IMG/VR virus record: IMGVR_UViG_3300023100_000003
Location: 30,755 to 94,754 of that record
Reading direction: 5' to 3' (one strand)
Source: a virus
Taxonomy: Duplodnaviria > Caudoviricetes
Length of the DNA stretch: 64,000 nucleotides
Part shown: positions 3,064 to 58,895 of the stretch, in pieces
Layout of the letters: each line of letters opens with the position of its first letter
Numbering within the stretch: position 1 is the stretch's first letter
Position numbers and translations under genes: made by a program
Notes under the pieces: generated by a model
Seen by the model: only the letters and a program-made list of their open reading frames with translations
The model's database searches: none
What the model was told of the DNA's origin: nothing

Positions 3064-3876
3064 TTAATTTCCTAGTCCTTGAATACATAATCTCATACTT
3101 TTAGGTAATTTACCATTATATGCTTCTCTTATTTTGACAACATGTCTGAGAGTATATTCTGGAGAATTTATATATTTATCATATATCTGATTTAACTCTT
3201 TGGATCTTTCTCTTCGAGTAATAATAGTGTAAACAGAATTATAGGACAACCCTAACAAATCACCTATAGCTTTAGAAGATACTCCATTCCTATTCAGAGC
3301 AAAAATAACAAGAATATTTTGCCAAACTTCTTTATAACTTCTGCCTAGGGATTGCGACAAATAAAATAAATCGTAAGGCACCCCATTTCTTTGAAAATCT
3401 TCTTTAGTACACAATTTTCTGATTGTTGATTCTACATACCCACAAGTGTCTCTATAAGTTATAAATCTATCTGTTAAATAAATCCTATAATCTTCATCTC
3501 TCACTGGAGCAGGGCATAATCCCATTTCATACATGTGTATAGTGTTTTCAGAACGAGTAGCCCATTCCAAATTATCTAATTTATTATTGAGCTTATTACC
3601 ATCTTTGTGATTGACTTCAGGTTTATTCTCAGGATTGGGGATAAAGGCTTCTGCTACAATTCTATGCAGATAAAGTGAACTAGCTACACCATCGTCAGCT
3701 GTAAGGCAAAGTAACCTGTAAGTTTTAGAATCTCGTGATTTATCGTACATAACTGCGCCTACCATTCTGTAAGGCTCTCCCTTCCTCAGAACACTAAAAA
3801 CTTCAGAATCTTTCGTCACATAATATCTTCCTTCAAATCCTTTTATCCATTTCCTGTCTTCATTCATTTCTATCAT
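3064..3876 (-). CDS. HNH homing endonuclease (NUMOD4-like N-terminus plus HNH domain)
   Basis: WIKGFEGRYYV N-terminus; LHRIVAEAFIPNPENKPEVNHKDGNKLNNKLDNLEWATRSEN. Confidence 0.9.
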   Translation of the reverse strand: MIEMNEDRKWIKGFEGRYYVTKDSEVFSVLRKGEPYRMVGAVMYDKSRDSKTYRLLCLTADDGVASSLYLHRIVAEAFIPNPENKPEVNHKDGNKLNNKLDNLEWATRSENTIHMYEMGLCPAPVRDEDYRIYLTDRFITYRDTCGYVESTIRKLCTKEDFQRNGVPYDLFYLSQSLGRSYKEVWQNILVIFALNRNGVSSKAIGDLLGLSYNSVYTIITRRERSKELNQIYDKYINSPEYTLRHVVKIREAYNGKLPKSMRLCIQGLGN

Positions 3877-4282: not shown

Positions 4283-5384
4283 TTAGCTTATACTAAATGT
4301 TTTTAATGCTTTCATTATCTCTGTATATGACTGAGTAGAGGGTGGATACCTTTTCTTCAATTCACATTCAGTTGCAAACAATGTAATCTCTTCGTCTTCT
4401 GATGGAAGCCCTATATCATAATTATGAGCTTTAATAGGGCCATGATCATAGATACTACCATTGTAACTGGTTTTACAATTAATGGGTAATACATCCTCAA
4501 TGGTATACACTCCATTAAACTGAGGATGAGTTAAACTAGTGAATGTTACTTCTTCTCCAATACTGTACTTAGGATTACTCATACTACCCTCCATCACATT
4601 TAACAGGGATTACAACGTCATCACAATAATTATCATCGTATACTTTGTATACAGTATATGCTAACAAGAAAACCACAATTGTTATACAACAGACGGATTG
4701 TTTATATTTCATTTCTGTAGTTCTTCCATCATCCACTTAAACTCTTTGTATTCTTTTAGTAGAGCATCATAATCTTGTGCAGAAACCCAATCACCTCTAA
4801 CAACTGTAGTTTCAAACATCTCCTTACCATCATTCCAGATACCATAGTAATCATTAAATGTTTCATACCGTTTTACATTCTCAAAATCTTGCATATTTAT
4901 TCTCCAAAATATTGCCATAGCACAGCATTACAAACACTATGTACAGCACCAATTGTTAAGCCAGTATTATGGCAATGATGTAAGTGTACAGGATACTTAA
5001 AGAAAGAGCTAGGGAATAATGATTCTTTTATTTTAAACTTAAGTACTTTATCGCTTGGATCAAGGTTAAGTGAATTACCACAATGAGAACATTTACCATT
5101 CTGTATTCTTATGTACTCTTCTCTAACCAAACGTCTTTCTGGTTGAGTTAGTCTGTTATAATCTACTGGTAGTTTCATAGTGAGCTAAACACCTGAGCAA
5201 GCTCTACTTCATACTTAGCTTTTTTATTAGTCATAGGATCAAATCCATCAGTAACATTAAGACCAACCACTATCCACTGCTTACCAAAAGCTTCATATAC
5301 CTTATGTCTATATCCATCGCAATACTCTACGTATTCGTCTTGGGTGATGCTAAATTTTATTTGATTCATCTTACTTAACCTCAA
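4283..5384 (-). other. Cluster of small hypothetical CDS (4283-4597, 4709-4894, 5175-5369) flanking the EndoVII gene
   Basis: Tightly packed co-directional ORFs. Confidence 0.6.
4897..5178 (-). CDS. Endonuclease VII-like (His-Me finger) nuclease
   Basis: QNGKCSHCG...LHHCHNTGLTIGAVHSVCNAVL matches the EndoVII pattern DH.H.TG.VRG.LC..CN. Confidence 0.75.
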   Translation of the reverse strand: MKLPVDYNRLTQPERRLVREEYIRIQNGKCSHCGNSLNLDPSDKVLKFKIKESLFPSSFFKYPVHLHHCHNTGLTIGAVHSVCNAVLWQYFGE

Positions 5385-6666
5385 TTACACAATTATGGCT
5401 ACTACCCAACACTTGTTCAAAACATCCTCTCATAACTTCTATCCCCTCATCTTTAAATCGTTCTTTAACAATTATACTATCATGCACAGGAATGATAACT
5501 TCTCCAATACTGTTGAAATGGCCTATCACTAGATCCATTATTTTACTATCAATATTCTGTAATAGCAATCCCTTAGGTTCATGGAACCATAATCTAATGT
5601 AATCATTCCGTTCTACGATAGCTTCAATGATTGCAGTATAGTCTATAAACTTAGGACATTTACCTTCTTCTACGAGTTTAGGTACAACCCCCTCTACGAA
5701 CATCATGTTAGCTAGATTTCTCCTTGACTCCCACCAACTAGCTACCCCTTTTGGATCAACACTAATACCACTATTCAAGAGTATTAAAGATGCAAACTTA
5801 CCAAAGTATCTGCATGTACGATCTTCATAATTAGGCAAAGTAATTGCATAGGGGTCAAAATCAACATCAAGTTCAATTCCATCTAAGGTAGCTGCTATTC
5901 TGGGGTGTAATGACTTGAAGTCAATCTCTACAGTTGGTTCTCCATCTATCCTAATCTTAGGTCTAATACCACGTTCCATAATCTTAGCTCCATCACCTAT
6001 AACAAAACTTCGCCCACCTTGCTCAAATGATGAGTTATTGTAAACTTTCTTTAGTTGAATATCATAACACTCTTCCCCGACTTCTATCATACTACTTCTA
6101 GTCATCTTGTTATACTTGTTTAGCATTTGAACTACTTCTTTCTGATAAAAGGGTAGAGGTGTTACTACTGGCTTCTTGTCAGAGTTTCTTATTTCCAAGA
6201 CTGAAGGTATTGTAGGTATCCTACTCTTGTAACAAATAGTCTTAAGATGTTCGTACAACTCTTCACTTAGCCTCATACTGGAGCTTATTGTCTTATCTGG
6301 AACTAATATACCACCCTTCATTACCCAAGAGCCTATACACCCTACAGTTAGATTACCTCTACCTGAGTAGTGCAACCAATCGAAAACACTTCTAGAGAAT
6401 GTGTAGGATACTTTACGGTTAACTTTAGTTCCATTATAGATCAAAGGTAAGCTGTAAGTCTCTTTATGTAAAACTACAGGAACTTCATCTCTACCAAAAG
6501 ATACTTGATACATTGCATTATATACAAAACAAGCAACAGCTTGGTATATCTTTGTTTTCTTGCTTTCTGTAAGCTTCAGTATTACTTGTTGGCCATACTC
6601 TTCTATGTATTCGTTATACAGATTTTCTACAGTGGTAGTAAGGTATTTAGGAACCTTATAATCCAT
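5371..6666 (-). CDS. Family-A/T7-RNAP-related polymerase without exonuclease domain (TV-Pol-like)
   Basis: QGGRSF, motif A IDGEPTVEIDFKSLHPRI, O-helix-like RYFGKFASLILLN, LQNIDSKIM, motif C IPVHDSIIV; likely start MDYK at 6666. Confidence 0.75.
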   Translation of the reverse strand: MDYKVPKYLTTTVENLYNEYIEEYGQQVILKLTESKKTKIYQAVACFVYNAMYQVSFGRDEVPVVLHKETYSLPLIYNGTKVNRKVSYTFSRSVFDWLHYSGRGNLTVGCIGSWVMKGGILVPDKTISSSMRLSEELYEHLKTICYKSRIPTIPSVLEIRNSDKKPVVTPLPFYQKEVVQMLNKYNKMTRSSMIEVGEECYDIQLKKVYNNSSFEQGGRSFVIGDGAKIMERGIRPKIRIDGEPTVEIDFKSLHPRIAATLDGIELDVDFDPYAITLPNYEDRTCRYFGKFASLILLNSGISVDPKGVASWWESRRNLANMMFVEGVVPKLVEEGKCPKFIDYTAIIEAIVERNDYIRLWFHEPKGLLLQNIDSKIMDLVIGHFNSIGEVIIPVHDSIIVKERFKDEGIEVMRGCFEQVLGSSHNCVIEVK

Positions 6667-6907
6667 TAGATAAATACTAATAATACATCTCCATACTACT
6701 ACTCCTTCATTAGTGAACAAAAAGTTAATAAAATAGCTCTCTAACCCAAGCACAGCAAGGGTTTCAGGGTTAAAAAGAGGTTAAATAAATCCCTCTACAT
6801 AAGTACTACTATACACCTCTTTTTCTAGAATACTAGCCCCTCCTATAGATTTGTTTGTTATTTAAACCGATGAAGTTATAACCCAAATATCAACTACCTC
6901 TATTTCC

Positions 6908-7873: not shown

Positions 7874-8705
7874 GTTTCAAACTTCTAGCTACTGAACTAA
7901 GAAAAGCTTTAGCCGATATTGAGGAAGCTGAAGCAAATGGTTTTATGCATTGTGAAGCTGTATTTCAAACTTATGGAGTAGATGGTGTGTTTACAGTTTT
8001 GAAATATTCTGATTTATGGGAGAAAGCACATCCTACAGATATGCGATTAGATTGGGGAAGATTTCAGAATGTAACTAAGAGACGTAAATTTGTTAATGGA
8101 GGTTTAGTGTAATGTCTATTAAAAAATATAATTTCACTGTAACTAAAACTTATGAAGTAGAAGTTAAAATTGATTCCGATAAAATTAATGAGGATTTCCT
8201 AGCAACTTTTAGAACCTATATGTGGGATGTAGAAGATGAAGGAGATATTGCAAACCATATTGCCAGATGTACTGCTTTTGATTTTGATCCCGAAGGTGTT
8301 GGTTTGCTTAAGAAATGGGACGAATCTGAAGAACAACAAATGTCAAGATGGGGTTTCAACTCTAAAGTGCTATATGAAGATGATGAGGTGGATTTAAGTA
8401 GTGAGTAAATATTCCTTTACCTAATAAGAAACTTACTATATAATAACCTTACACCAACCAAAAAGGAGATACCTAATGAACAAGATACTAAACACAATCC
8501 TAAAGAATAGAATATCAAATATAATCTTTACATTTCTTTTAACTGTTTTAACTTTTACAGGAGCTTGTTTTGTTAGTGCTGGTGTAGGGAGTCTTATAGT
8601 AATATTTGTTAGTGGTGGGGTAGCATTTAAAGTAATAGAGTGGTCAGACAGCAGACACAAGGAGCTGAATGGTCTTAAATTAAATAATTTGGAGTAGTAT
8701 ATTTT

Positions 8706-12989: not shown

Positions 12990-14141
12990 ATGAAATACAT
13001 AGTGGAACAAAAGAAGCTTGAATCGTTATTAGATAGTGAAGTGTGGGATCTACTGGCAGAACATAATGCTATCGTAGCTGGAGGAGCTATCACATCTCTA
13101 TTTTGTAGTAGAGAGATAATGGACATTGATGTTTATTTTCGATCTGAAAGAGATCTGGTTAAGGTATTAGCTGCTATATTTAGCATTGAAAGTATTTCTG
13201 ACCATGAGATAGGAAGTTTTTCTGTACATGTGTCAGGTTTAAGTCAACGTACAATTATCTGTTCTAACCAAGAGCAAATGATTCAATTCATGACATTCAA
13301 ATACTTCCCAGATGTACAGGATATCTTCGATACATTTGATTTCACTGTGTGTATGGGAGCTTATGATTGTAAGACACAAGATTTCACATTACACCCAGAA
13401 TTCTTTAAACACAATTCCCAGCGTTACCTTAAGTTCAACACAGGAACAGCTTTCCCTCTTATGAGCCTCATGCGTGTAGATAAATATAGGCAGAAAGGTT
13501 ATGAGATTAGTAAAGCTGAATTACTTCGTGTAATCTTCTCTTGTATGCAATTAAACTTGAATTCTTGGGAAGAAGCTAAAGATCATATTGGTGGGATGTA
13601 CGGATATGATATGTCTAAAGCTTTTGAGGAAGATAAAGACTTCACTCTAGTTGAGCTATCAGAACAGTTATCAACGCTTCAAGAACGTGGTACAGAGCTT
13701 TACACACCTATTGGCCATGCTAATAAAGGCTTCTGGGAAATTGCAGAAGAACTATTCTACCGTCCTGAAGAAATATTACCTGAACCAGAATTACCTGTGT
13801 TTGATGATGAGAAATATTTATACAAATGTGTACAATCAGATGGTACAAGTTATTATGGTTCCTCATATGGTAAAGTGGATTACATTGTAGGTAGTATTAT
13901 TGATGTCCCAAGTGGTGGATTGTTTTTCCATAGCTCAAGTAAGAATCCTTATGTACAGGATGATAATTGGGTTGAGTGTGAATTATTAGAAGGTGCCTTT
14001 AGTTCAGAGTATGGTAATCAGAAGAGAGTAGTCCATGGTGGGAAGGTTAAAGTAATACGTAGATTTAAAGTTAATAGTAGCCGTAATAGTTGGAGTGAGC
14101 TACAGACGTGGATGTTTAGTAAATTTGGTAATGAGGAATAA
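12990..14141 (+). CDS. Pol-beta-superfamily nucleotidyltransferase (CCA/poly(A) polymerase head-like)
   Basis: AIVAGGAITSL...DIDVYF and FDFTVCMGAYD; GGAGG RBS. Confidence 0.75.
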   Translation: MKYIVEQKKLESLLDSEVWDLLAEHNAIVAGGAITSLFCSREIMDIDVYFRSERDLVKVLAAIFSIESISDHEIGSFSVHVSGLSQRTIICSNQEQMIQFMTFKYFPDVQDIFDTFDFTVCMGAYDCKTQDFTLHPEFFKHNSQRYLKFNTGTAFPLMSLMRVDKYRQKGYEISKAELLRVIFSCMQLNLNSWEEAKDHIGGMYGYDMSKAFEEDKDFTLVELSEQLSTLQERGTELYTPIGHANKGFWEIAEELFYRPEEILPEPELPVFDDEKYLYKCVQSDGTSYYGSSYGKVDYIVGSIIDVPSGGLFFHSSSKNPYVQDDNWVECELLEGAFSSEYGNQKRVVHGGKVKVIRRFKVNSSRNSWSELQTWMFSKFGNEE

Positions 14142-14145
14142 TAAC

Positions 14146-15195
14146 ATGGATAATACACAGAAAGTAGTTTGGTATAAAAGTGAAGATGGTATTTACGTAA
14201 GTAAACCTACATTCAACTACACTGGAAATAGGGATCGTATCAATGTAGCTTTAATAAACGATAAAGTACCAACGGATACTCATCTCTATGGCTGGCAATT
14301 TGTTGAAGGTGAAACAGAGCTTAAATCTTTAAAAGATAAGAAAACTGGCCCTATCTGCAATATCCGATATGAACTTATCAATCCAAGTTTAGCTGGTGAT
14401 AAAATTCCTCTGGTGTTGACAGATAAACAAGTCAATGAAGAGGAAGATTGGGAAGATGATGATGAGCCTTACAGTTGGCATAATCCTGAATTTAATAGTT
14501 TAAGATCTTTATATGAACGTAAGTATGACAGAGAGCCAGCTTTCTTTGTAGAGGTTCCTTTTGAAGCTGAATATTTGGGAGAAATCCTTGCTGACAATGT
14601 TAACAACATAAGTAATGCAACTTACAAGATTAATCGTGGACATTACGCTAGTGATGGTTTTCAAGATATAAACATTAAAGATGTAGTTAAGTATTATGAA
14701 TTAGAACAAATGTTAGTTTCAGATTTATTATTACATAATCGTCCTTGCTATCTCGATTCACCTACTACATACAAAATAGTTCGTAATTACATTAAAGATA
14801 ATATCAACCCTAAAACAGCTATAGTATCTTCTGATTATGATTTCTGTTTTACTGTGGAAAAGAAGATATCAGTCAAGCCTTGGGTTAATCGTAGAGAGAT
14901 TCTTACTAGTAGAGGTAAATCTTATCGTCCACTAAAGTTTACAAGCAGCAATGTGGAATACAAGAAAATTAAAGTATTTGAAATGACTAATTCTAAAGAT
15001 AAGTATCAAGGCTATAGTGTTATTGATGGATTCAAAGGAGATAATCTAAAGAATTTGATTGACAATATTAAACTCTTCTTAGATGAATTATTAGAATTCA
15101 TTAATCAGGAAGTATCAGAATGTGAACACTGTAAAGGTACTGGTCACTTAGTGATGGATACTTTTGATAAGAATAAGCGTACTCAAGATGATTAA
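14146..15195 (+). CDS. Hypothetical protein directly downstream of the nucleotidyltransferase
   Basis: Long ORF with SDYDFCFTVEK and C-terminal CEHCKGTG; likely start MDNTQ. Confidence 0.65.
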   Translation: MDNTQKVVWYKSEDGIYVSKPTFNYTGNRDRINVALINDKVPTDTHLYGWQFVEGETELKSLKDKKTGPICNIRYELINPSLAGDKIPLVLTDKQVNEEEDWEDDDEPYSWHNPEFNSLRSLYERKYDREPAFFVEVPFEAEYLGEILADNVNNISNATYKINRGHYASDGFQDINIKDVVKYYELEQMLVSDLLLHNRPCYLDSPTTYKIVRNYIKDNINPKTAIVSSDYDFCFTVEKKISVKPWVNRREILTSRGKSYRPLKFTSSNVEYKKIKVFEMTNSKDKYQGYSVIDGFKGDNLKNLIDNIKLFLDELLEFINQEVSECEHCKGTGHLVMDTFDKNKRTQDD

Positions 15196-16092: not shown

Positions 16093-18901
16093 GCAGCATA
16101 TATAACTTTGTAGTAGAACTACAAGATCTTTGTAATAAATATGAATTAGAACTTAAAGCAGACAGAGAAGAAAATATTGGTATTTATCCTCAAGATAAAC
16201 CTATGGTGTTGGGTACTCAAACCTACACTTGGGGTAAAACTATTTATGTTGATATTGTAAAAATGGATGATGCAGATGAGTAATTTTAAACCACAATGGT
16301 TCTCAGACGATAGTATTATTGAACAAAACATAGTTCCTATTATCAATAAAGAAGGGAATGAAGACTTTGGTGTGTCACTTACAGTGACGACAGGGTATGC
16401 TTGTGTAGAAGTAGTGTTAGACTATAATGAGCTTAGGAATATAATGAAATATTTTGATGATGTAGCTTTTGATCAGTATGAGGAAGATGTTTATGAGTGA
16501 TTTTGAGGGTGCTGTAGCCATTAGTAAAGAAGTGGCTAGTGTTGCTATGGAGAAGTATAAAGAAGCTTACACACAGTCTGAAGAGGCTTTAAATGCTATC
16601 ATAGAAGAACAGCAAGGAATAAAGAAAAGAGTATTCTCTCACTGGCGCTGGTTAGTTCCTATAGATAAGTGGACTTTAGCTGTTCGAAAGCATGTCGGCA
16701 GTTGGTACTTCAGTTACCATCATGTAGCATTGTCTGAATTTGGTTTAGCTTACGAAGATTATAAAATATTAGACAGCTTAAGTGTTTCTCTTGATATTCG
16801 ATCTATGTTAGATATATCTTGTGGAGATAAATTATTATTTAGTCTTGAACAAGCTAAGTTTATAGAAGAATGGAGTAATAAATGAGTGAAATAAACTTCG
16901 GTAAATATAATGACTTCTTTGTTGAGGATAAAGTTGACCCATCTGGAGACTTGGAGATAGGAATACCAGAACATCAATCTGAATACGTAGTTCACAGTTG
17001 GCTTAATAAGGTATCAGCTTTGGAGTTGATTATTCACTTAAATAAAGTATTTGATTTAGGGATAAAAATAGATGAGTGATATACCCAAATGTATATGCCC
17101 TGTTAACACTCCAGAGCTGTATTATCACTTTCCAAAGTGTCCTTACAAAGTTTACATGATTGCAATTAAGAAAGAGGATAAAGAATAAATGATTGAAGAA
17201 CTAATACAACGAATAGAAAAGCTTGAAGCTCAAGTATCTCTTTTGAATGGAATGAGTAGTGTGATTGATAAATCTGGACCTAACCATTTGATGCAGGGAA
17301 CTACAACATCTCCTAGTTTAGGGTATAACTCAGAGTTAACAGGTAGTAATTTTAGAAATGTAGATTTCAATGAAAAGTTAAGAGCTGCTGCTGAAGCGTT
17401 TAGAGATAACTATCGATTGGATTGTGTAGGGAGTGATAGTGGAATAGGTAAAGCTAATATTGAAACTAAGGAGAATAAATAATGGTAGACACATATGGTA
17501 TTATGATGGAGAAAGACAATTGGGGAGATTGGGTTCAGAAGACTGACTATGAAGCTCTAGAACATGAAAATGATACTCTTCAGAAGAGAATAGAGGAACT
17601 TGAAGAAACTATAGAAGATCTCTTTGAAAGGTTACAAGAATATGAATAATCCACAACGTGTAGTATGTGCTGCAAACAGAAACTCAAAAGGTCTAATAAT
17701 TTGTGGGGCTAGACATTGGGATGATATTATGTGTACTGTAGTAGATGCATTAAGTGTCAGTGACTTAGACTGGGAACAAGGGTTTATCGATAATTATGGT
17801 AAATTCTTAACCAGAGAAGAAGCTAGTGTCATAGCTGTGGAACAGGACCAGTTGAAGGGTTATTATAAAGATTGCCCTACTGGATATTTATTTAGTGAAC
17901 ATTTGTATTAGGAGATAAAGTGACTAGAACCAACTGTAGACGTACACGTTATAGACGTAGTGTAAGACAGATGAGTCTACTAGACGGAGCTTTCTTCCGT
18001 AAGGTAGACTTCAAATATGATGGGCAAAAGGTTTACAAGCTTCAATACACTAGTAAGTGGAAAATAAGAGATACTCATTATAGAGATGGGTTAAAGTGGC
18101 AAACAGCTAAAAGAATTGGAAGGTGATATGAATAAAGAAATATTAGAGCGTATAGAAATTATTCAAGAGGTTTACCCTAACACAGTTATGAACACCATAT
18201 ACCAAGCAGTGTGTGCCCACCTGTATGATTATACAGATGATAAATTCACAGAAATATCTGATGAAGAACTATTGGCTTGTTTAAAAGCTGAAATACATAC
18301 AATAATGAATGGGTGAGATATGACTAGTCTATGTAAACACCCAGACAAGAACCATAAGCTATGCTCAGGAGGGTGTGAGAAGGAATGTCAACGTATGAAA
18401 AGAGAACCTATCTTGTGGGGAACTATCCTAAAGGATAAGAAAGATATTAAAGTAACATTTGGAAAGAAGGAGATAAAGAGTGACTAAGAAACAACTATTA
18501 AAAAGAATAAGGGATATAACATACAAACATTTCCATGATTCAGATGGGATAGAAAAACTACTCAGAAAGAATCCTGAGTTGGGCATACCCAAAGACTGTA
18601 TGGTATTTCTAGACTCAGTCAAGATTGCAGAAGAAGTGTACAGTTTATTTAAGAAACAGGTAAGTGAGGAAGGGAAGTGAGTAAATATTTAAGTAGAGAA
18701 ACAAGAAACAAACTAAAAGAAAGATTTGATATATCTAGAGCTGGCTATGTATACACATCCCCAACAACTGGTAAAGAAATTGTTGTAAGGGCAGAAGACC
18801 TACATGATCTACATGATTTTCTAGTATTCACCTCAACCAAAGAATACCATGAATGGGTTAAAATGAAACTAATGGATCTCAGTAATGACAGACTTCGATG
18901 A
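16089..18901 (+). other. Run of small hypothetical CDS
   Basis: Abutting or overlapping ORFs with GGAG RBS, including an unannotated 55-aa ORF at 17482-17649. Confidence 0.65.
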
Positions 18902-19583
18902 ACTCCCAGAAGAGATAGTACAAGCCCACATAGATGGGTTAGAGTACCACATGAAGCAGGGATTGATATCACGTAAACAACTAGAATATATTAACTCTGT
19001 ATCTAAACGTAAGCTTAATGAGTTACTGTCAGAAGACAATACCAAAGAGTACTTAAACAAGGAACAAGGCAGTAAAGCCTATACCAAGATCTTAGAGACA
19101 GGGATAACAGCACAGGAAGCATTAGAGTATGTAGCTGAGTATTATGGTAAAGACATAGAGTGGGTAGAAGAGGTAAAGAACAACAACTACATCCATGCTA
19201 AACAAGTATTCATAGACCATCAAGAACATGATGTACAGAAGGCTATGAAGCAAGATGGTACACTACGTCCTAAAGCTTTAAAGACAAGCAAAACACCTAA
19301 TAGTCAACTCAGGGAGCTACATGCTCAGCGTAAGCTGCATAGCACTTTGAATGACTTGAAGAGTACCACTACAAATCTATCTACAGAAGTAGAAGATTTA
19401 CAAGCTAAATCTGTTATCACTGATTCTAATGTAGATTTGGTAATGAACATACTAGATGTAGACCAACTCTCTCTGAAAGAGAAGGCCAGTAAGCTCAAAG
19501 CTCATGGCTTTACTCAGACCAAAATATCTACCTACTTAGGAGTTACTACACGTACCCTAAAGAGATGGTGGAAAGATATCTAA
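18885..19583 (+). CDS. Coiled-coil protein with C-terminal helix-turn-helix
   Basis: LKEKASKLKAHGFTQTKISTYLGVTTRTLKRWW. Confidence 0.7.
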   Translation: MTDFDELPEEIVQAHIDGLEYHMKQGLISRKQLEYINSVSKRKLNELLSEDNTKEYLNKEQGSKAYTKILETGITAQEALEYVAEYYGKDIEWVEEVKNNNYIHAKQVFIDHQEHDVQKAMKQDGTLRPKALKTSKTPNSQLRELHAQRKLHSTLNDLKSTTTNLSTEVEDLQAKSVITDSNVDLVMNILDVDQLSLKEKASKLKAHGFTQTKISTYLGVTTRTLKRWWKDI

Positions 19584-19991
19584 TTAAGAATTATTCTTAT
19601 ATGTCCCCTTTTTGTCACCTTCATTGGTGACTTTTCTCTTCTTTATAAAGGAAAATTTATATTTCCTGCTAATCCCTTTCCCCATATTTTATAATCCCCC
19701 TATAAAAACACACCTTAGTATTATGTATCTATGAAATATCTGTAGGTAGGAATATCTTATAACGGAGTTATAGACAGTAATTAGTACAGCAAATACACCC
19801 CCTTGGGATACCAAGATAACGAGACTTGGTGCTTATGTTACGTAATTCTAATACTATCAATATCTTAAGTCCGTGAGGACTAGTGTTTAACAAGGTCCCC
19901 CACCGACCTATTGTTCTCTCCGAGCTTATTGAAATATCTACCACATCTCACAATCATTGTCAATAGTATAATCGATAATAAATAACTATTC

Positions 19992-20542
19992 TACAGCGTA
20001 GCTGTAATAGGATATGACTATCATCACTGTAAGTGATACATAAGTACATATAAGAGTAGTAGAGAGATAAATAAACAATAAAGAATGATAAGATGATAGA
20101 GATAAGAGATATACATTATATACGTGTTCCATGTCATAAGCTATGCTTATGTGCGTGTTCACAGTCTACGACTGTTTCACGTGGAACAATAGACTGTGAT
20201 AGAGTATTAATAGTATAGCTTACGCTATAGGGTGAGTGTTGTTGGTTTAACAACCAAGGGATGAATAGATATAACCATAGGGTGTATGTACGCTATCGCA
20301 TAAAATTGTACTATTCTTAGCAGTAATACTATCTATAGCGTAGCTATAATAAGTTATTGATTACTAAAGTAATAATGTATATTCGTAGCTACGCTACATA
20401 TAGGTGCTATCTTGTGTTTACACACAACATGTAGTGCTATTATTGATTAGTTTATTTATGTATTTCCTTACAATAATCAATGGATATAATAAATGTTATA
20501 AGCATAGCTTATGATAGATGTTAATAGTCTAAGCTACGCTTA
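19992..20542. repeat. Array of eight mini-hairpins with C-GTA-G / C-GTAA-G / C-ATA-G loops
   Basis: Inverted repeats at 19992-20006, 20135-20151, 20161-20175, 20214-20229, 20334-20348, 20385-20397, 20498-20512, 20530-20542. Confidence 0.85.
20173..20188. promoter_or_regulatory. parS: parS (ParB/Spo0J binding site)
   Basis: TGTTTCACGTGGAACA, an exact fit to the widespread chromosomal consensus TGTTNCACGTGNAACA. Confidence 0.8.
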
Positions 20543-20579: not shown

Positions 20580-20934
20580 AAGTACATACAAGAGACAAAC
20601 AACAAACAAAGGCAAAGCAAATGAAAAGGTTCTTAGTGTATGCCATCATCATTGGAACAATAGGAAATGTTATGTTGTCTAGTGCATCAAACTCTACTGT
20701 AATGAACTCCACAGCTGTTAAACTCTCTCAATTAGGTGAATAAGATGAACGACATTAAATACATTGAAATACAGTTTTTAGTTAAGGTTAACAAACCTAA
20801 GATTAAAATTACTTTGGTTAATCTTATGAGTCGTGATGATGCACTCTTTATTGCTGATCAGGTTAAGTTAGATAAATCAGTATTTAGTGTTACCTGTTGG
20901 ACTGAAAAGAATACTTTTATCTAGTAAATAGTTG

Positions 20935-30559: not shown

Positions 30560-31101
30560 GTTAGTATGAATCTTAATGTTATTAGTTAGTATTATATAAC
30601 TGTCCTTTGGTGAGTAAATTCTGGATAGAACTTCCCTATAGATCTCCATACCCCATAAGGAGCCTAAGAAGAACTATAAGTTAAATCCTCAGAATCTACT
30701 ACCTAAGACATCTGTCCTTTGGAGCCGCAATATTCTCTGCACTACAGGCAGCATACAATTAAGTATGGGATAAGATAATAGACAGCTAATCTACATCTCG
30801 TGATGTGCTTCCGCTTTAGCCAGCGTCATAGCCCTGTCACATCAACTCATCTAAGAGCAACTTCCTCAGGTTGAACATGCCTTCTTTGTTCTACTATTGG
30901 TACAGAAGAGGTTATCCCAGAAAACTCCCAATAGACAACTAAATCTTTAGTCATACATCTATGTTACCACGACAATTCAATTCTGTCTATTAGTATTTAA
31001 CTATCAAGTCAATAGTTTTAATTAATAATACCATTAATCCCCATATAACCATTATGACTATAACCTATAACTATTCAATCTAAAAGATAGTGATCTTTTT
31101 G

Positions 31102-31130
31102 TTGACGTATGTTTACGTTCTACATAGAAT
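31102..31130 (+). promoter_or_regulatory. sigma70 promoter
   Basis: TTGACG-N17-TAGAAT. Confidence 0.75.
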
Positions 31131-31322
31131 GGCTTCCAACAGAGCAAGACACTATTTAGCGTAACTACACAAACAGATATAACTAAATAGTGTTTTGAGT
31201 TGAAGGATTTAGTTAATAGGATATATAAGTTACAAGGGATAAGCTTACGCTTATAACACATAACACCAAGGAATGTGAGACTAATTAAGAACCATTAATT
31301 TGAAATTATTAGGAGATTCATT

Positions 31323-39097: not shown

Positions 39098-40957
39098 GTG
39101 AGCGATAAAGAAAACGGTGTAAGGATAAATCAACACTTTCATTGTATAGCAAATGAATTTGATGATAAAGATAGTTGTAATAGTAGTGATGCGTTATGTG
39201 TGTATGAAAAGCAAGATGGAGAAAACACAACATATGATGCTTTCTGTTTCTCTTGTGGACAACATTTTCACAAAGAAGAAGTACATAATTCAACATTGGC
39301 TCCAATTCTAGGAATCACTGAAGGAGAAGTAACTGAACGTAAAAAATTTACTTTTGCATCAAAGACAGAAGCTCTTAGTGGTGAACAGATTGGTAAGTTG
39401 AAAGAGTCAGTTGGTTTTACAAACATTCCATATCGAAAAATTACACCAGAAACATTGATGTTCTTTGGTCATATGGTTAAACGTAATTCCAAAGGTGTAC
39501 CTACTGAAATTTATTATCCTGAAACAGAAGAGGATAAAGTAGTAGGATTTAAAATTAGAATTCTACCCAAAAAATTCAGTAAGATTGGTAGAACAGGAAA
39601 AGGTAGTCAGTTATCTGGTCAATTCCGATACAAGGGGAATCATAAACGTGTTCTGTATGTTGGTGGAGAAAATGACAAAGCGGCTTCTTGGCAAGCTTTA
39701 CAAAAATACAGTGTACATGTAGTTAGTCCTACTTGTGGTGAAGGTAGTGCAGCAGCTCAAGCAGCAGCTCAATATGAATTCTTCGATAGGTACGAGGAAA
39801 TCTATGTCGGGATGGATGACGATTCAGCTGGTCAAAAAGCTACTGCTGAAATTGTTAAAGTATTACCAGCTGAGAAAGTAAAGATTGTAAAGTGGAGTAG
39901 TAAAGACCCTCATAAGCTTTTGGAAGATGGGCAAGATGAACAGTTAAGACGTGATTTCTTTAATGCTAAAAGTTTCTTGGATGTTGGTATTAAATCAAGT
40001 ACAGAAATTCTTGCAGATGTACACGATGTGTTGGTGGCAGATTTGATTACACTACCTGACTATATGTGGCGAATGCAGAAGATGATGAAACGAGCATTTA
40101 GTACGAACGGTAGGGTTGTAAACATTATTGGCTCTACCTCTTGTGGTAAGAGTACCCATACTAATAACATGTTGTACCACTGGATATTCTCTGAAGGCAT
40201 GAAACCTTTGATTATATCTCTTGAGATGACAGCCGGTGAGTATGCTGTTGATTTACTATCTCTCCACTTAAAGAGAAATCTTGATTGGTTTGAAGAAGGG
40301 ATGGATGCTTGGAACTATTTACAACAAGAAGATGTCAAATCATTATATGATAACTTGTTTAATGACTCAGAATACAATGAACGTTTTAGAATTGTAGATG
40401 ATCGTGATGGTACGATTGAAGCCATTAAGAAAATGATCGAACGTGGTGTAAAACAATACGGTTGTAACATTGTAGTAATTGACGTACTTACTGATTTACT
40501 TCGATTCTTACCAATGGATGAGCAAGAGAAGTTTATGTCATGGGAAAAGAACTTTGTTAAGTCTGGGGTTAGTATTGTGAACGTACTCCATACAAGAAAA
40601 CCAGAACGTAAGAAAGATGGCACGTTGGAGAAGATTACACAATATGATGCTCTAGGTAGTGGTACGTTTGTTCAGTCTGCCCACATTAATATTGTAATCA
40701 ATCGTGATAACATGCACTCTGATCCAACAGAAAGAAATACCACGTATGTAGATATGCCGAAGTGTCGTAGAGGTACTACTGGTATTGCTGGTGAATGGTA
40801 TTATGATCCTGAGACAAGGCAAGTGTATGACAAGCAAGATTTCTTTAGTCAGTCAGTACGAACTGAGAATCCAAATTATGAACCAACATACACACCTCCA
40901 GTAGAAGAACCTACTATTGATTATAGTGAAGATGATATTGTGGAATTAGATTATTAA
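39098..40957 (+). CDS. T7 gp4-like primase-helicase
   Basis: Zn finger (C...CNSSDA...CFSC), TOPRIM YVGMDDDSAG and KDP, Walker A GSTSCGKST, ISLEM, IVVID, KCRRGTTG. Confidence 0.92.
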   Translation: MSDKENGVRINQHFHCIANEFDDKDSCNSSDALCVYEKQDGENTTYDAFCFSCGQHFHKEEVHNSTLAPILGITEGEVTERKKFTFASKTEALSGEQIGKLKESVGFTNIPYRKITPETLMFFGHMVKRNSKGVPTEIYYPETEEDKVVGFKIRILPKKFSKIGRTGKGSQLSGQFRYKGNHKRVLYVGGENDKAASWQALQKYSVHVVSPTCGEGSAAAQAAAQYEFFDRYEEIYVGMDDDSAGQKATAEIVKVLPAEKVKIVKWSSKDPHKLLEDGQDEQLRRDFFNAKSFLDVGIKSSTEILADVHDVLVADLITLPDYMWRMQKMMKRAFSTNGRVVNIIGSTSCGKSTHTNNMLYHWIFSEGMKPLIISLEMTAGEYAVDLLSLHLKRNLDWFEEGMDAWNYLQQEDVKSLYDNLFNDSEYNERFRIVDDRDGTIEAIKKMIERGVKQYGCNIVVIDVLTDLLRFLPMDEQEKFMSWEKNFVKSGVSIVNVLHTRKPERKKDGTLEKITQYDALGSGTFVQSAHINIVINRDNMHSDPTERNTTYVDMPKCRRGTTGIAGEWYYDPETRQVYDKQDFFSQSVRTENPNYEPTYTPPVEEPTIDYSEDDIVELDY

Positions 40958-56072: not shown

Positions 56073-58895
56073 TTGAAAGAGGTTGATACAGTAGTAGCGT
56101 ATAATGGTATTTTAATTGACTATGTAAGAGATAAACTAATCCCAGAGAAAGGATTAGTATTACTTACAAAGAAAGGTTTCTACAAGAAAGAACATGAAGA
56201 CTCTCCTCAAGAGAGTTTTGCAAGAGCAGCTACTTGTTATTCATTCGGAGATTATGAATTTGCTCAACGTATTTACGATTATGCTAGTAAGGGTTGGTTT
56301 ACTAATGCTTCCCCGGTATTAAGTAACGCAGTAGATATTGAATGGCCTACATTCTCGTCAGAACAATTCGAAGAAGCTGGTGAATGGTTAGAAGAAAATG
56401 TAATTCCTGATGGAATGCCAATATCATGTTTCTTATCAATGATTACAGATAGTAAGAAAGGTTTGGTGGATACAAACACAGAAGCTAGATGGTTAAGCAT
56501 GATGGGAGGTGGTATCGGTATCTATGCAGCTAATAGAGCACCAGATGAAAAGTCTACAGGTATTATGGCCCATTTACGTGGATATGATGCTGATGCTTTA
56601 TCTTACAAACAAACTGAATCCCGTAGAGGAAGTATTGCAGTTTATTTAGATGTAGATCATCCAGAAATTATTTCTTTCTTGGAGATGCGTAATCCTGTAG
56701 GGGGAGATTCTAATAAGAAATGCTTCAACCTTAATAATGCAGTAAACATTACTGATAAGTTTATGAGAGCTGTTATTAATGGTGAAGAGTATGAGCTGGT
56801 TGATCCTAAGCACGGTAACACTGGAAGATTCTTAAAAGCTCGTGAAGTGTGGACTAAGATATTACAAACACGATATGAAACTGGGGAACCCTACTTAAAC
56901 TTTATTGATACCATTAATAAGAATATTCCTAGTTGGATAACTAAACCAACTTATAAAGTACAACAAAGTAATTTGTGTGTTGCACCAGAGACTCAAATAT
57001 TAACCCGACAAGGCTATATACCAATTTCTGAATTAGAAGATTGTGATGTTGATGTTTGGAATGGAGAAGAATGGTCTGAAGTGTACCCTAAGAAAACTGG
57101 CGTTAACCAAAAGTTATTGAAAGTTACAACTAGTTCGGGTCAAGTTCTTGAATGTACAGAATATCATAAGTGGTATGTGTTTACTGGCTATGGTAAACCT
57201 TACATTGAGAAAAGAACCTATGAACTTAAAGAAGGTGATAAGTTAATCAAGTTTGATTTACCTGTGATTGAAGGGGTTAAAGATTTAGACTATGCATATG
57301 ATAATGGTTTTTTCTCTGGCGATGGAAGTCACTCTCAAGGAATACCTATAATTTACTTATACAATGAAAAAAGATTATTGAAAGATAAATTTACAAGTGT
57401 ATACAGTTGGTATGATCAAGAAGACAATAATAGAATCATTGGAAGGTCTAAATTATTAAAAGAAAAATACTTTGTCCCTACCAGTGATTATTCTGTTAAA
57501 TCACGGTTAGATTGGTTGGCGGGGTATCTCGATGCTGATGGATGTGTATATAGAAATGGAACCAATGAGGCAATTACAGCTTGTAGTATAAACTATACTT
57601 TCTTGCAAGAAGTTCAGCTTATGTTACAAACGTTAGGAGTTTCTTGTAAAATACATAAAATGTCTGATAGTGGCATGAAAATGCTTCCTGCAAACGATGG
57701 TAGTGGCGAGAATAAATTATTTTCTTGTAAAGAATCCTACCGTTTACTGATAACTAGTTATGATTCATTTAAATTATTATCCTTAGGACTTGAAACTTTC
57801 AGATTGAAAATAGAAACCAGACGTCCACAAAGGGATGCAAAGCAGTTCAATAAAATTGTATCTGTAGTAGACGAAGGTAGGCATGATGATACTTGGTGTT
57901 TTACTGAACAAAAAAGAAATATGGGGATGTTTAACGGAATTCTTACAGGAAACTGTAATGAAATAACTCTCATGACAAGTAAGAAACGTACAGCAGTTTG
58001 TTGTTTGTCTAGTCCAAACATTGATAAATATGATGAATGGAAAGATACAACAATGATTCAAGACTTAGTTCGTTATCTTGATAATGTGTTGGAATACTTT
58101 ATTAGGTTAGCTCCTGTAGAATTAAGTAAAGCTGTTTACTCAGCTAGTAAAGAAAGAGCAATTGGTTTAGGAGCTTTAGGATTTCACTCTTACTTACAAT
58201 CTAAACGTATTCCTTTTGAATCTGGTGGATTTAATAGTGCAGCTAGTGAAACACATAGAATCTTCTCAAACATTAAGGAAGAAGCTGTAAAGGCTAGTAA
58301 GCAGTTAGCTAAAGAACGTGGGGAATGTAGTGATTGTCTTGGTAGTGGAATGCGTAACAGTCATTTAATGGCTATTGCACCCAATGCTTCAAGTAGTGAT
58401 ATTGTTGGTGTATCTCCTAGCTGTGAACCTTTAGCTGCTAATGCATTTTTATCTGAAGGTAGAGCTGGTAGTTTCTTGATTAAGAATCATAGACTGAAAG
58501 AAGAATTACAGGAACTTAATTTAGATACAGACGAGTTTTGGGAACAAGTAGAACAGGATAAAGGTAGTATTAGAAACATCAAAGGATTACCTGATTGGAT
58601 GTATGGTGTTTATAAAACGTTCTCTGAGATAGATCCTAAATGGGTAATAGAACTTGCATCCATCAGACAACCACATGTTTGTCAAGGTATGTCTAATAAT
58701 ATCAAAGTTAGGAAAGACATTACATTCCAAGAGATGAGTGATATACATATATTAGCTTGGGCTAAGAAGCTGAAAGGTTTGTATTACTGTAGAGCAGAGA
58801 AACCTGTACAGACAACAAACACAGATGTCACACAACCTTTGAATCGTGTGAATGTAGAGATTAATTTTGAAACCTGTTTAAGTTGCGAGGGATAG
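56073..58895 (+). CDS. nrdA: Class I ribonucleotide reductase alpha subunit containing an intein
   Basis: ISCF, GGGIG, RRGSIAVY, GEPY, SNL|C.EI after splicing, RAIGLG, AIAPNASS, LYY, C-terminal CLSCEG. Confidence 0.95.
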   Translation: MKEVDTVVAYNGILIDYVRDKLIPEKGLVLLTKKGFYKKEHEDSPQESFARAATCYSFGDYEFAQRIYDYASKGWFTNASPVLSNAVDIEWPTFSSEQFEEAGEWLEENVIPDGMPISCFLSMITDSKKGLVDTNTEARWLSMMGGGIGIYAANRAPDEKSTGIMAHLRGYDADALSYKQTESRRGSIAVYLDVDHPEIISFLEMRNPVGGDSNKKCFNLNNAVNITDKFMRAVINGEEYELVDPKHGNTGRFLKAREVWTKILQTRYETGEPYLNFIDTINKNIPSWITKPTYKVQQSNLCVAPETQILTRQGYIPISELEDCDVDVWNGEEWSEVYPKKTGVNQKLLKVTTSSGQVLECTEYHKWYVFTGYGKPYIEKRTYELKEGDKLIKFDLPVIEGVKDLDYAYDNGFFSGDGSHSQGIPIIYLYNEKRLLKDKFTSVYSWYDQEDNNRIIGRSKLLKEKYFVPTSDYSVKSRLDWLAGYLDADGCVYRNGTNEAITACSINYTFLQEVQLMLQTLGVSCKIHKMSDSGMKMLPANDGSGENKLFSCKESYRLLITSYDSFKLLSLGLETFRLKIETRRPQRDAKQFNKIVSVVDEGRHDDTWCFTEQKRNMGMFNGILTGNCNEITLMTSKKRTAVCCLSSPNIDKYDEWKDTTMIQDLVRYLDNVLEYFIRLAPVELSKAVYSASKERAIGLGALGFHSYLQSKRIPFESGGFNSAASETHRIFSNIKEEAVKASKQLAKERGECSDCLGSGMRNSHLMAIAPNASSSDIVGVSPSCEPLAANAFLSEGRAGSFLIKNHRLKEELQELNLDTDEFWEQVEQDKGSIRNIKGLPDWMYGVYKTFSEIDPKWVIELASIRQPHVCQGMSNNIKVRKDITFQEMSDIHILAWAKKLKGLYYCRAEKPVQTTNTDVTQPLNRVNVEINFETCLSCEG
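56976..57953 (+). mobile_element. Intein with LAGLIDADG homing endonuclease (326 aa) in nrdA
   Basis: Begins CVAPETQIL, block B LECTEYHKW, endonuclease motifs NGFFSGDG and LAGYLDADG, ends GILTGN with +1 Cys. Confidence 0.93.

Follow-up and report, generated by a model that had tools for sequence, protein, structure and literature searches.

Structurally conserved arrays of short C-GNA-G hairpins in a non-coding module of aquatic myophages, possible DNA signals of an origin or priming hub

The window analyzed here, the final 64 kb of a 94,754-bp IMG/VR record (IMGVR_UViG_3300023100_000003) from an uncultured aquatic phage, rated complete by CheckV, contains a 1-kb gene-free stretch in which eight short hairpins (H1 to H8) lie within 550 bp. 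Six of them belong to a class, C-G(N/NN)A-G, in which a C:G pair closes a loop that begins with G and ends with A. This class is conserved by structure: the motif is well defined, it is strongly enriched in the homologous gaps of related phages, and its structure is conserved across these relatives although the stems differ. Selection on hairpin structure most likely acts on DNA. We tentatively favor the view that the hairpins are DNA-shape signals of a replication origin or priming hub.

The initial annotation of this DNA reported eight C-GTA-G-type hairpins in non-coding DNA. All eight were found again, with the same positions, stems and loops (Table 1), and all are perfect palindromes with 5-7 bp stems and 3-4 nt loops. 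In six of them, the C:G pair closes a loop with a 5'-G and a 3'-A (GTA five times, GTAA once); H2 and H7 have an ATA loop, which is not GNA. The same C:G closure and loop ends are found in two extra members of the class in the same gap and in a solitary ninth hairpin further downstream. The second pair is G:C, giving GCGNAGC or GCGNNAGC, in H1, H4, H5, H6, H8 and the ninth copy, and T:A in H3. An AGC-RTA-GCT core is common to seven of the eight hairpins, four of which lie on each strand. The array is indeed non-coding, with no open reading frame (ORF) of at least 60 amino acids (aa), and it was rejected as coding DNA because no six-frame peptide across it is conserved in relatives. Terminators were also rejected as an identity for the hairpins, since no T-runs follow them.

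For a class defined as C-[GTA/ATA/GTAA]-G and stems of 5 bp or more, we counted 11 members in the 94,754-bp genome versus 2.0 ± 1.6 in 30 dinucleotide shuffles, and eight of the 11 fall within the 550 bp, i.e. in 0.6% of the genome. Bare C-GNA-G pentamers are flanked by at least four further Watson-Crick pairs in six of eight cases in the gap, versus two of 203 outside. Genome-wide there is no enrichment of GCGNAGC itself (5 observed versus 5.5 expected); four of the five copies are in the array, all of them GCGTAGC. GCGTAAGC is found at 20218 and 31243. The exact 15-mer of H5 has 49 matches in IMG/VR, which is about the number expected by chance, and none is in a relative.

Table 1. Features of the window and corresponding hairpins in relatives (window positions unless a contig is named)
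Feature	Position	Strand	Sequence or type	Remarks
H1	19992-20006	+	TACAGC-GTA-GCTGTA	contains GCGTAGC; DNA fold -3.9 kcal/mol, z -3.8
H2	20135-20151	-	CATAAGC-ATA-GCTTATG	ATA loop, non-GNA
H3	20161-20175	-	ACAGTC-GTA-GACTGT	made from one arm of the inverted repeat around parS
H4	20214-20229	-	TATAGC-GTAA-GCTATA	contains GCGTAAGC
H5	20334-20348	+	TATAGC-GTA-GCTATA	contains GCGTAGC; identical hairpin in L203 at 2995
H6	20385-20397	-	GTAGC-GTA-GCTAC	contains GCGTAGC
H7	20498-20512	+	ATAAGC-ATA-GCTTAT	ATA loop
H8	20530-20542	-	TAAGC-GTA-GCTTA	contains GCGTAGC
Extra class member	19758-19772	+	TATAAC-GGA-GTTATA	same gap
Extra class member	19868-19881	+	AGTCC-GTGA-GGACT	same gap; GNNA loop
Ninth hairpin	31239-31254	-	ATAAGC-GTAA-GCTTAT	solitary, second non-coding region; DNA fold z -8.1
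parS	20173-20188	-	TGTTCCACGTGAAACA	host-type, exact; 0 mismatches to the 16-bp consensus TGTTNCACGTGAAACA
Inverted repeat	20159-20168 / 20190-20199		10-bp arms	encloses parS
HTH protein gene	18885-19583	+	232 aa	C-terminal helix-turn-helix; directly upstream of module
Intrinsic terminator	19614-19640	+	GTCACC-TTCATT-GGTGAC, then T-run	closes upstream operon
Conserved 5' part of module	19734-19938	+	AAATATC repeats, C-rich box, GTTTAAC	repeats at 19734, 19751 (GGAATATC) and 19932; GTTTAAC at about 19886
AT-rich tract	20044-20110	+	75-78% AT, 68-78% purine	possible unwinding element
Other hairpin	20242-20257	+	TTGGTT-TAAC-AACCAA	carries TGGTTTAACA
Small conserved gene	20621-20743	+	40 aa	right edge of module; only conserved ORF found there
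Compact polymerase	5371-6753	-	460 aa, PolA/T7-RNAP superfamily	no exonuclease domain; PHROG 4756, 'unknown function'
Primase-helicase	39098-40957	+	Toprim-DnaB (Pfam Toprim_2 and DnaB_C)	only recognizable priming enzyme
L203 array			TATACC-GTA-GGTATA, TATAGC-GTA-GCTATA, TTGTTAGC-TAC-GCTAACAA, GTTAGC-GTA-GCTAAC	relative
L207 array			C-GCA-G, C-GTA-G, C-GAA-G	relative
L211 and L212 arrays			C-GTA-G, C-GTTA-G, C-GGTA-G, C-GGA-G	relatives
G-CTGG-C family	L203:3351-3366; L211:3398-3417, 3603-3616; L212:4448-4461, 4648-4665	+	invariant CTGG loop, G:C closure	second covarying hairpin family

The relatives available for comparison were G001 (an uncultured 99.6-kb phage), Barba19A and the metagenomic contigs L203-L215. 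Conservation extends to part of this group: arrays of the same C-G(N/NN)A-G class, built with other stems, are present in L203, L207, L211 and L212. On a tree of the helix-turn-helix (HTH) protein encoded next to the gap, arrays occur in three subclades and are missing from one well-supported clade. Over 12 related phages, the counts of which are not phylogenetically independent, the density of the class is 2.11 per kb in the gaps and 0.08 per kb outside, which is a 25-fold difference, versus 2-5-fold for other hairpin classes. Among C:G-closed hairpins, G...A loops account for 31 of 60 in the gaps versus 27 of 161 outside (p = 6e-7). The contrast is sharpest in a test anchored on the bare C-GNA-G pentamer, i.e. 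without pre-selecting hairpins, in which at least four more pairs flank 23 of 39 pentamers in the gaps versus 12 of 932 outside (odds ratio 110, p = 1.7e-27). Four control pentamers show no comparable pairing (C-ANG-G, 2/38; G-GNA-C, 4/50; C-ANA-G, 9/101; C-GNG-G, 0/15).

Alignment of the gaps shows how the hairpins have changed. One homologous site reads GTTAGC-TAC-GCTAAC, ATAGC-TAC-GCTAT or ATAGC-TGC-GCTAT, with compensatory change in the stem and a middle loop base that varies (TAC or TGC, equivalent to GTA or GCA on the other strand). Between L211 and L212, compensatory pairs are found in at least three hairpins, along with loop-only changes from GTA to GAA, and compensatory changes at homologous positions are seen across relatives at the 60-74% level. 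These patterns bear on one alternative, which is that the hairpins have no function and reflect either local spread of small palindromes by duplication, inversion and slippage in an AT-rich spacer, or a selfish mini-palindrome. Recent duplicates do exist (H1/H5, which share a 26-nt direct repeat; H2/H7, which are one 17-mer in opposite orientations; and H4/H5), an 18-nt inverted repeat connects H6 with the H5 region, and the HTH tree shows a patchy distribution of the arrays. Unrelated IMG/VR phage contigs also have short hairpins, C-GTA-G copies included, in small intergenic groups (L034:13439-13652; L052:7072-7153 and 7943-7998), and therefore the motif is not confined to this phage family. 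Against an absence of function stand the very strong loop-class specificity relative to the matched control pentamers, the compensatory changes, and a location that is always inside the same conserved module. We consider this alternative very unlikely.

Next to be weighed is whether the structure is read in DNA or in RNA. The initial annotation had argued for DNA from differing but paired stems and the use of both strands, and this is supported by the comparison, in which stems differ, pairing is restored by compensation and the middle loop base is free. Over the array-bearing phages, 13 hairpins are on the + and 18 on the - strand, and every array-bearing relative has both orientations. Wobble-type mismatches show no strand bias (46 G.T versus 56 A.C). 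A search of Rfam gave no family for the array: nothing but tRNAs passed the gathering thresholds, and relaxing the limit to E <= 1 added only sub-threshold snoRNA noise. In N4 promoter hairpins, the C:G closure and the loop's 5'-G and 3'-A are needed for extrusion at physiological supercoiling and for resistance to single-stranded DNA-binding protein (SSB) (PMC4496689). The invariants of the arrays are these same published determinants of extrusion, stability and SSB resistance, and they also match the GCGNAGC/GCGNNAGC mini-hairpins, very stable DNA structures that occur at the priming sites of G4, St-1/alpha3 and RSF1010 ssiA (PMC13037366). Because of the mixed orientation, the lack of wobble bias, the lack of an Rfam match and the identity of the kept features with the N4 extrusion and SSB determinants, we read the selection as most likely DNA-level.

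Hairpins acting in RNA, either in a long structured leader or non-coding transcript of the operon that follows or in RNAs from both strands, where stem-loops would stabilize, process or regulate the RNA, would account for some of the data. Relative to shuffles, the two strands both have better folds (z -4.5 and -3.3), RNA helices would be expected to show compensatory changes just as well, and the gap sits between a terminator and the next gene. There is also a second covarying hairpin family in the relatives, G-CTGG-C, which is strand-specific (five of five on the + strand); compensatory changes separate its stems in L211 from those in L212, and the gap of the window has no member of it. The triplet at which Escherichia coli DnaG prefers to start is CTG. 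For the main class, the presence of G...A loops with C:G closure in both orientations means that any one transcript would have C-UNC-G in half of the copies, which together with the missing wobble asymmetry and Rfam match makes an RNA-level role quite unlikely. In addition, the features that are kept stabilize triloop hairpins of DNA and are not known to do so in RNA (PMC13037366).

The gap is a conserved non-coding module. Non-coding DNA of at least 1 kb follows the HTH gene in most relatives (G001 and the L203-L215 contigs); L210 has only about 0.5 kb of it, and in L204-L206 the contig end cuts it. Barba19A has an equivalent gap of 1.27 kb in inverted local orientation. The 5' third of the module aligns across five phages (the phage studied here, L203, L211, L212 and L207), and AAATATC is 6-19-fold enriched in the homologous gaps, on one strand only. 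TGGTTTAACA is single or near-single copy in this phage, G001 and Barba19A, and all three have a copy in the gap (window 20243-20252; G001 74128; Barba19A 33966, minus strand). The surrounding 60 nt or so form a block common to G001 and Barba19A. Outside the shared core, the repeats are lineage-specific. In G001 (L031; G001 74460-74590), these are six TTGACA units with an iteron-like spacing of 22/22/36/22/21 bp, and the same gap also has palindromes of TTGCATA and, on one strand, three DnaA-box-like sites. On the right, the 40-aa gene has tblastn matches in L203 (57%) and L209 (47%), and gene calling puts a 40-aa gene at the corresponding position of L203. Promoter-like sequences are scarce around the module: between 19000 and 21500 there are four sigma-70-like matches versus 11.6 ± 3.1 in shuffles, and this depletion led us to reject sigma-70 promoters as an identity for the hairpins. 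The promoter of the downstream operon must nevertheless lie within this interval.

The 232-aa HTH protein has 33 homologs with 49-74% identity, which came from a word-index protein search; its back-translated sequence found no relative among IMG/VR and JGI metagenome contigs. Family profiles match HTH_23 at the C terminus in all 16 aligned members (best E 8e-7) and sigma-70 region 4 in eight. Its AlphaFold2 (AF2) model (predicted local distance difference test score, pLDDT, 80.8) is all-helical with no whole-fold match in the PDB, and a profile search against PDB sequences and a fold search recovered only the HTH. Its gene is always found immediately upstream of the module, whose invariant repeats it is a candidate to bind. 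It might instead read the palindromes themselves, as duplex operators or iterons for a dimeric protein, like the palindromic iterons of the lambda origin; an array of palindromes beside an HTH gene, most of them with the AGC-RTA-GCT core, would suit this. Lambda-type iterons are near-identical repeats read by one initiator. Here, stems vary within the genome (TACAGC, ATAAGC, TATAGC, GTAGC and ACAGTC) yet are perfectly self-complementary, and they vary widely among relatives (TATACC, GTTAGC, ATCAC, TAGCC, ATTGC, ACATC and TGTGC, among others) while the HTH is nearly invariant. A sequence-reading dimer predicts neither symmetric compensatory drift nor conservation of the central C-G.A-G alone, and we regard duplex operators as highly improbable.

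The reading that we tentatively favor, an origin or priming hub, is put forward because of the synteny with the HTH gene, the one-strand repeats, the AT- and purine-rich tract, the iteron-like repeats in a homologous gap, and the hairpins on both strands. In the mechanism that we infer, the hairpins would be cis-acting signals working as folded DNA, not as RNA or duplex operators. In brief, (i) with the C:G closure and G...A loop, a stem of 5-7 bp would be able to extrude under negative supercoiling, or to survive in single-stranded DNA, while resisting SSB, (ii) the HTH protein would bind the invariant repeats of the hub, (iii) the AT-rich DNA would open, (iv) the phage primase-helicase or another polymerase would use the SSB-resistant hairpins on either strand as landmarks or for entry, and (v) a parS site in the hub would dock host ParB. 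By analogy, such a hub would resemble ssiA/ssiB of RSF1010 oriV and the G4-type origin.

Several observations weigh against an origin or priming hub. Arrays are lacking in G001, Barba19A and L209/L210/L214 although the module is kept, and the hairpins are therefore not essential to the core function of the module. The stems, only 5-7 bp long, need a special loop and supercoiling for extrusion, the loops of H2 and H7 are ATA, and nearest-neighbor DNA energies are modest (-2.2 to -5.1 kcal/mol, from parameters that carry no GNA bonus). The genome has no match to RepB'/RepB_primase, Prim-Pol (AEP) or SSB families. GC skew gives no origin signal and follows gene orientation, and no replication origin has been experimentally mapped in any member of this phage group. 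A DnaA-box origin was rejected, as DnaA boxes are not enriched (overall, 0.55 versus 0.48 per kb) and none is found in this gap. Finally, RSF1010 has two ssi signals, a number far below the 8-10 hairpins seen here.

Comparison with known systems shows how the arrays depart from them. The ssi signals (RSF1010 oriV ssiA/ssiB with the RepB' primase; G4, St-1 and alpha3 with DnaG) are likewise stem-loops of the mini-hairpin kind on opposite strands, beside repeats and AT-rich DNA. Signals of the RSF1010/G4 type are read as folded single-stranded DNA, with much longer stems and far fewer copies, and no RepB'/AEP primase is encoded here. The resemblance to the mini-hairpin DNAs d(GCGNAGC)/d(GCGNNAGC) described by Hirao and colleagues (reviewed in PMC13037366), which withstand heat and nucleases extraordinarily well, is literal, with exact GCGTAGC in H1, H5, H6 and H8 and GCGTAAGC in H4 and the ninth copy, and differences in H3 (second pair) and in H2 and H7 (loop). 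The known natural examples are single sites, whereas here there are 8-10 copies on both strands within 0.8 kb, and arrays in relatives. No description of arrays of this kind was found in the literature searched. C-GNA-G mini-hairpins have been known as isolated signals, at three N4 promoters and a few priming sites; in this uncultured aquatic myophage family, they are arrayed and kept by compensatory evolution. If they are origin or priming signals, they would offer a sequence-independent way of finding phage origins, which are unknown for most phages.

The likeness to N4 raises the question whether the hairpins are promoters. The initial annotation had proposed, as one of several functions, start sites for a TV-Pol-like enzyme, the 460-aa polymerase of the window. 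This protein has a genuine PolA/T7-RNAP fold: its AF2 model (pLDDT 87) matches Pol I in Foldseek with probability 1.0, and fold comparison gives Z scores of 13.9 for apPol, 13.4 for yeast mitochondrial RNA polymerase (RNAP), 12.9 for T7 RNAP and 8.2 for the N4 mini-virion RNAP (mini-vRNAP). Family-A DNA polymerases and single-subunit RNAPs thus tie within 1 Z unit, a score that does not tell their substrates apart. A sequence profile found no relative in the PDB, so the placement is by fold comparison only. Nothing ties the enzyme to the hairpins, because homologs are present in Barba19A (gp041) and G001, both of which have no arrays, and the proposed link is weakened accordingly.

Promoters of the N4 kind read by this polymerase would yield short transcripts or primers from both strands. 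The geometry of the N4 virion-RNAP early promoters (P1-P3) fits, with a stem of 5-7 bp, a 3-nt loop, C:G closure, 5'-G and 3'-A (PMC4496689), the compact polymerase is as near to T7/mitochondrial RNAPs as to DNA polymerases and has an HDS-type motif C, and sigma-70-like promoters are depleted in the region. Three of the five features that define N4 promoters fail. The N4 vRNAP requires a purine at -11, but the loop center is T in 16 of 23 triloops (five phages), among them every GNA triloop of the array. No conserved flank corresponds to -8G/+1C, and there is only a T/A extension of the stem. The hairpins have no fixed orientation to genes, with both orientations in use and no genes between them, and only one copy is near a gene start, where it is antisense to that gene. 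No ORF has the size of a vRNAP (about 3,500 aa), the largest being 941 aa, and the phage is not a schitovirus. Hairpin promoters are therefore improbable.

Within the array lies an exact host-type parS, which overlaps H3. Its chance expectation is 3.4e-4 per genome, and sites in the same module recur in L211 (3254-3269, exact) and, with 15 of 16 positions, in L207 (5168-5183) and L213 (4166-4181); L212 has two hairpins in place of parS. No ParB_N domain was found in the phage genome. In the virulent Bacillus phages phi29 and Nf, host-type parS sites are bound by the host Spo0J/ParB (PMC2731898). As in those phages, a chromosomal parS consensus is present on a phage without its own ParB (PMC2731898). 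In phi29/Nf there are five dispersed sites, whereas here there is one, embedded in a hairpin array, and spore entrapment is inapplicable because the host is probably an aquatic Gram-negative bacterium.

A parS in this setting is reminiscent of the iss of T5, and the module might be a docking and entry-control region for host proteins. In such a region, ParB on parS and DNA shape would pause, organize, position or compact the incoming genome. The likeness to T5 iss (Repeat Region 3, left terminal repeat) is in about 1 kb of conserved untranslated DNA, packed with repeats and palindromes, with sites for host chromosome proteins. Like iss, the module follows a first early/anti-defense block, here 12 kb with PhoH and a Gad1 anti-Gabija homolog (14095-15195, E 7e-64). 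The recurrence of parS in relatives, the phi29 precedent of a host parS on a virulent phage (PMC2731898), and the overlap with H3, which would make extrusion and ParB binding exclude each other, all favor this possibility. On the other side, T5 iss has paired DnaA boxes, which are not enriched here, and parS is found in only four of the 12 relatives, with arrays and parS not strictly co-occurring. T5 iss is located toward the inner end of a long terminal repeat, some 8% in from the left; the record studied here is classed as linear without end repeats, and its two ends are dissimilar. Moreover, the phage is a Barba-like myovirus, not T5-like, i.e. of an unrelated lineage. Although we find an iss-type region unlikely, entry or docking signals would bear on the long-open question of the T5-type injection-stop mechanism.

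More speculatively, and with low probability, the arrays may mark an undescribed DNA-shape hub of virulent phages that combines rows of extrudable, SSB-resistant C-GNA-G hairpins with a host centromere site. Since extrusion of H3 and loading of ParB would be mutually exclusive, such a hub could act as a sensor of the incoming genome's topology, switching between docking of host ParB and the start of replication or priming.

Minus-strand structural genes reach window position 6.75 kb approximately and are followed by about 54 kb of plus-strand early/replication genes, including PhoH, Gad1, the Toprim-DnaB primase-helicase, a DNA polymerase and an intein-bearing ribonucleotide reductase. The closest cultured relatives are the Rheinheimera 'Barba' myophages (66% DNA polymerase identity), and identity to G001 is 62%. 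The Barba phage papers make no mention of the non-coding region, an origin or termini, and DNA searches with the gap and the replication region found no match among 50,697 GenBank phages. A 16-nt hairpin common to genome positions 436 and 94495 was rejected as a terminal repeat, as it belongs to no end similarity. Contig breaks inside the gap (L204, L205, L206, L213 and L214, three of them 150-200 nt past the HTH gene stop) were also rejected as evidence of a physical end, because most of these contigs are unitig-like, from assemblies that stop at repeats; the likely cause is either this kind of break or strain variation.

The ninth hairpin belongs to another non-coding region, about 670 bp long (30650-31322), which has no Rfam match, shares AATAGGATAT with the H1 flank and is abutted by a 96-aa minus-strand ORF. 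Elsewhere in the window, the large subunit of ribonucleotide reductase (56073-58895) is split by a LAGLIDADG intein. Two neighboring tRNA genes are located on the minus strand (1815-1891 and 1900-1970), both of which are detected by Rfam and only the first by ARAGORN (Pro, tgg).

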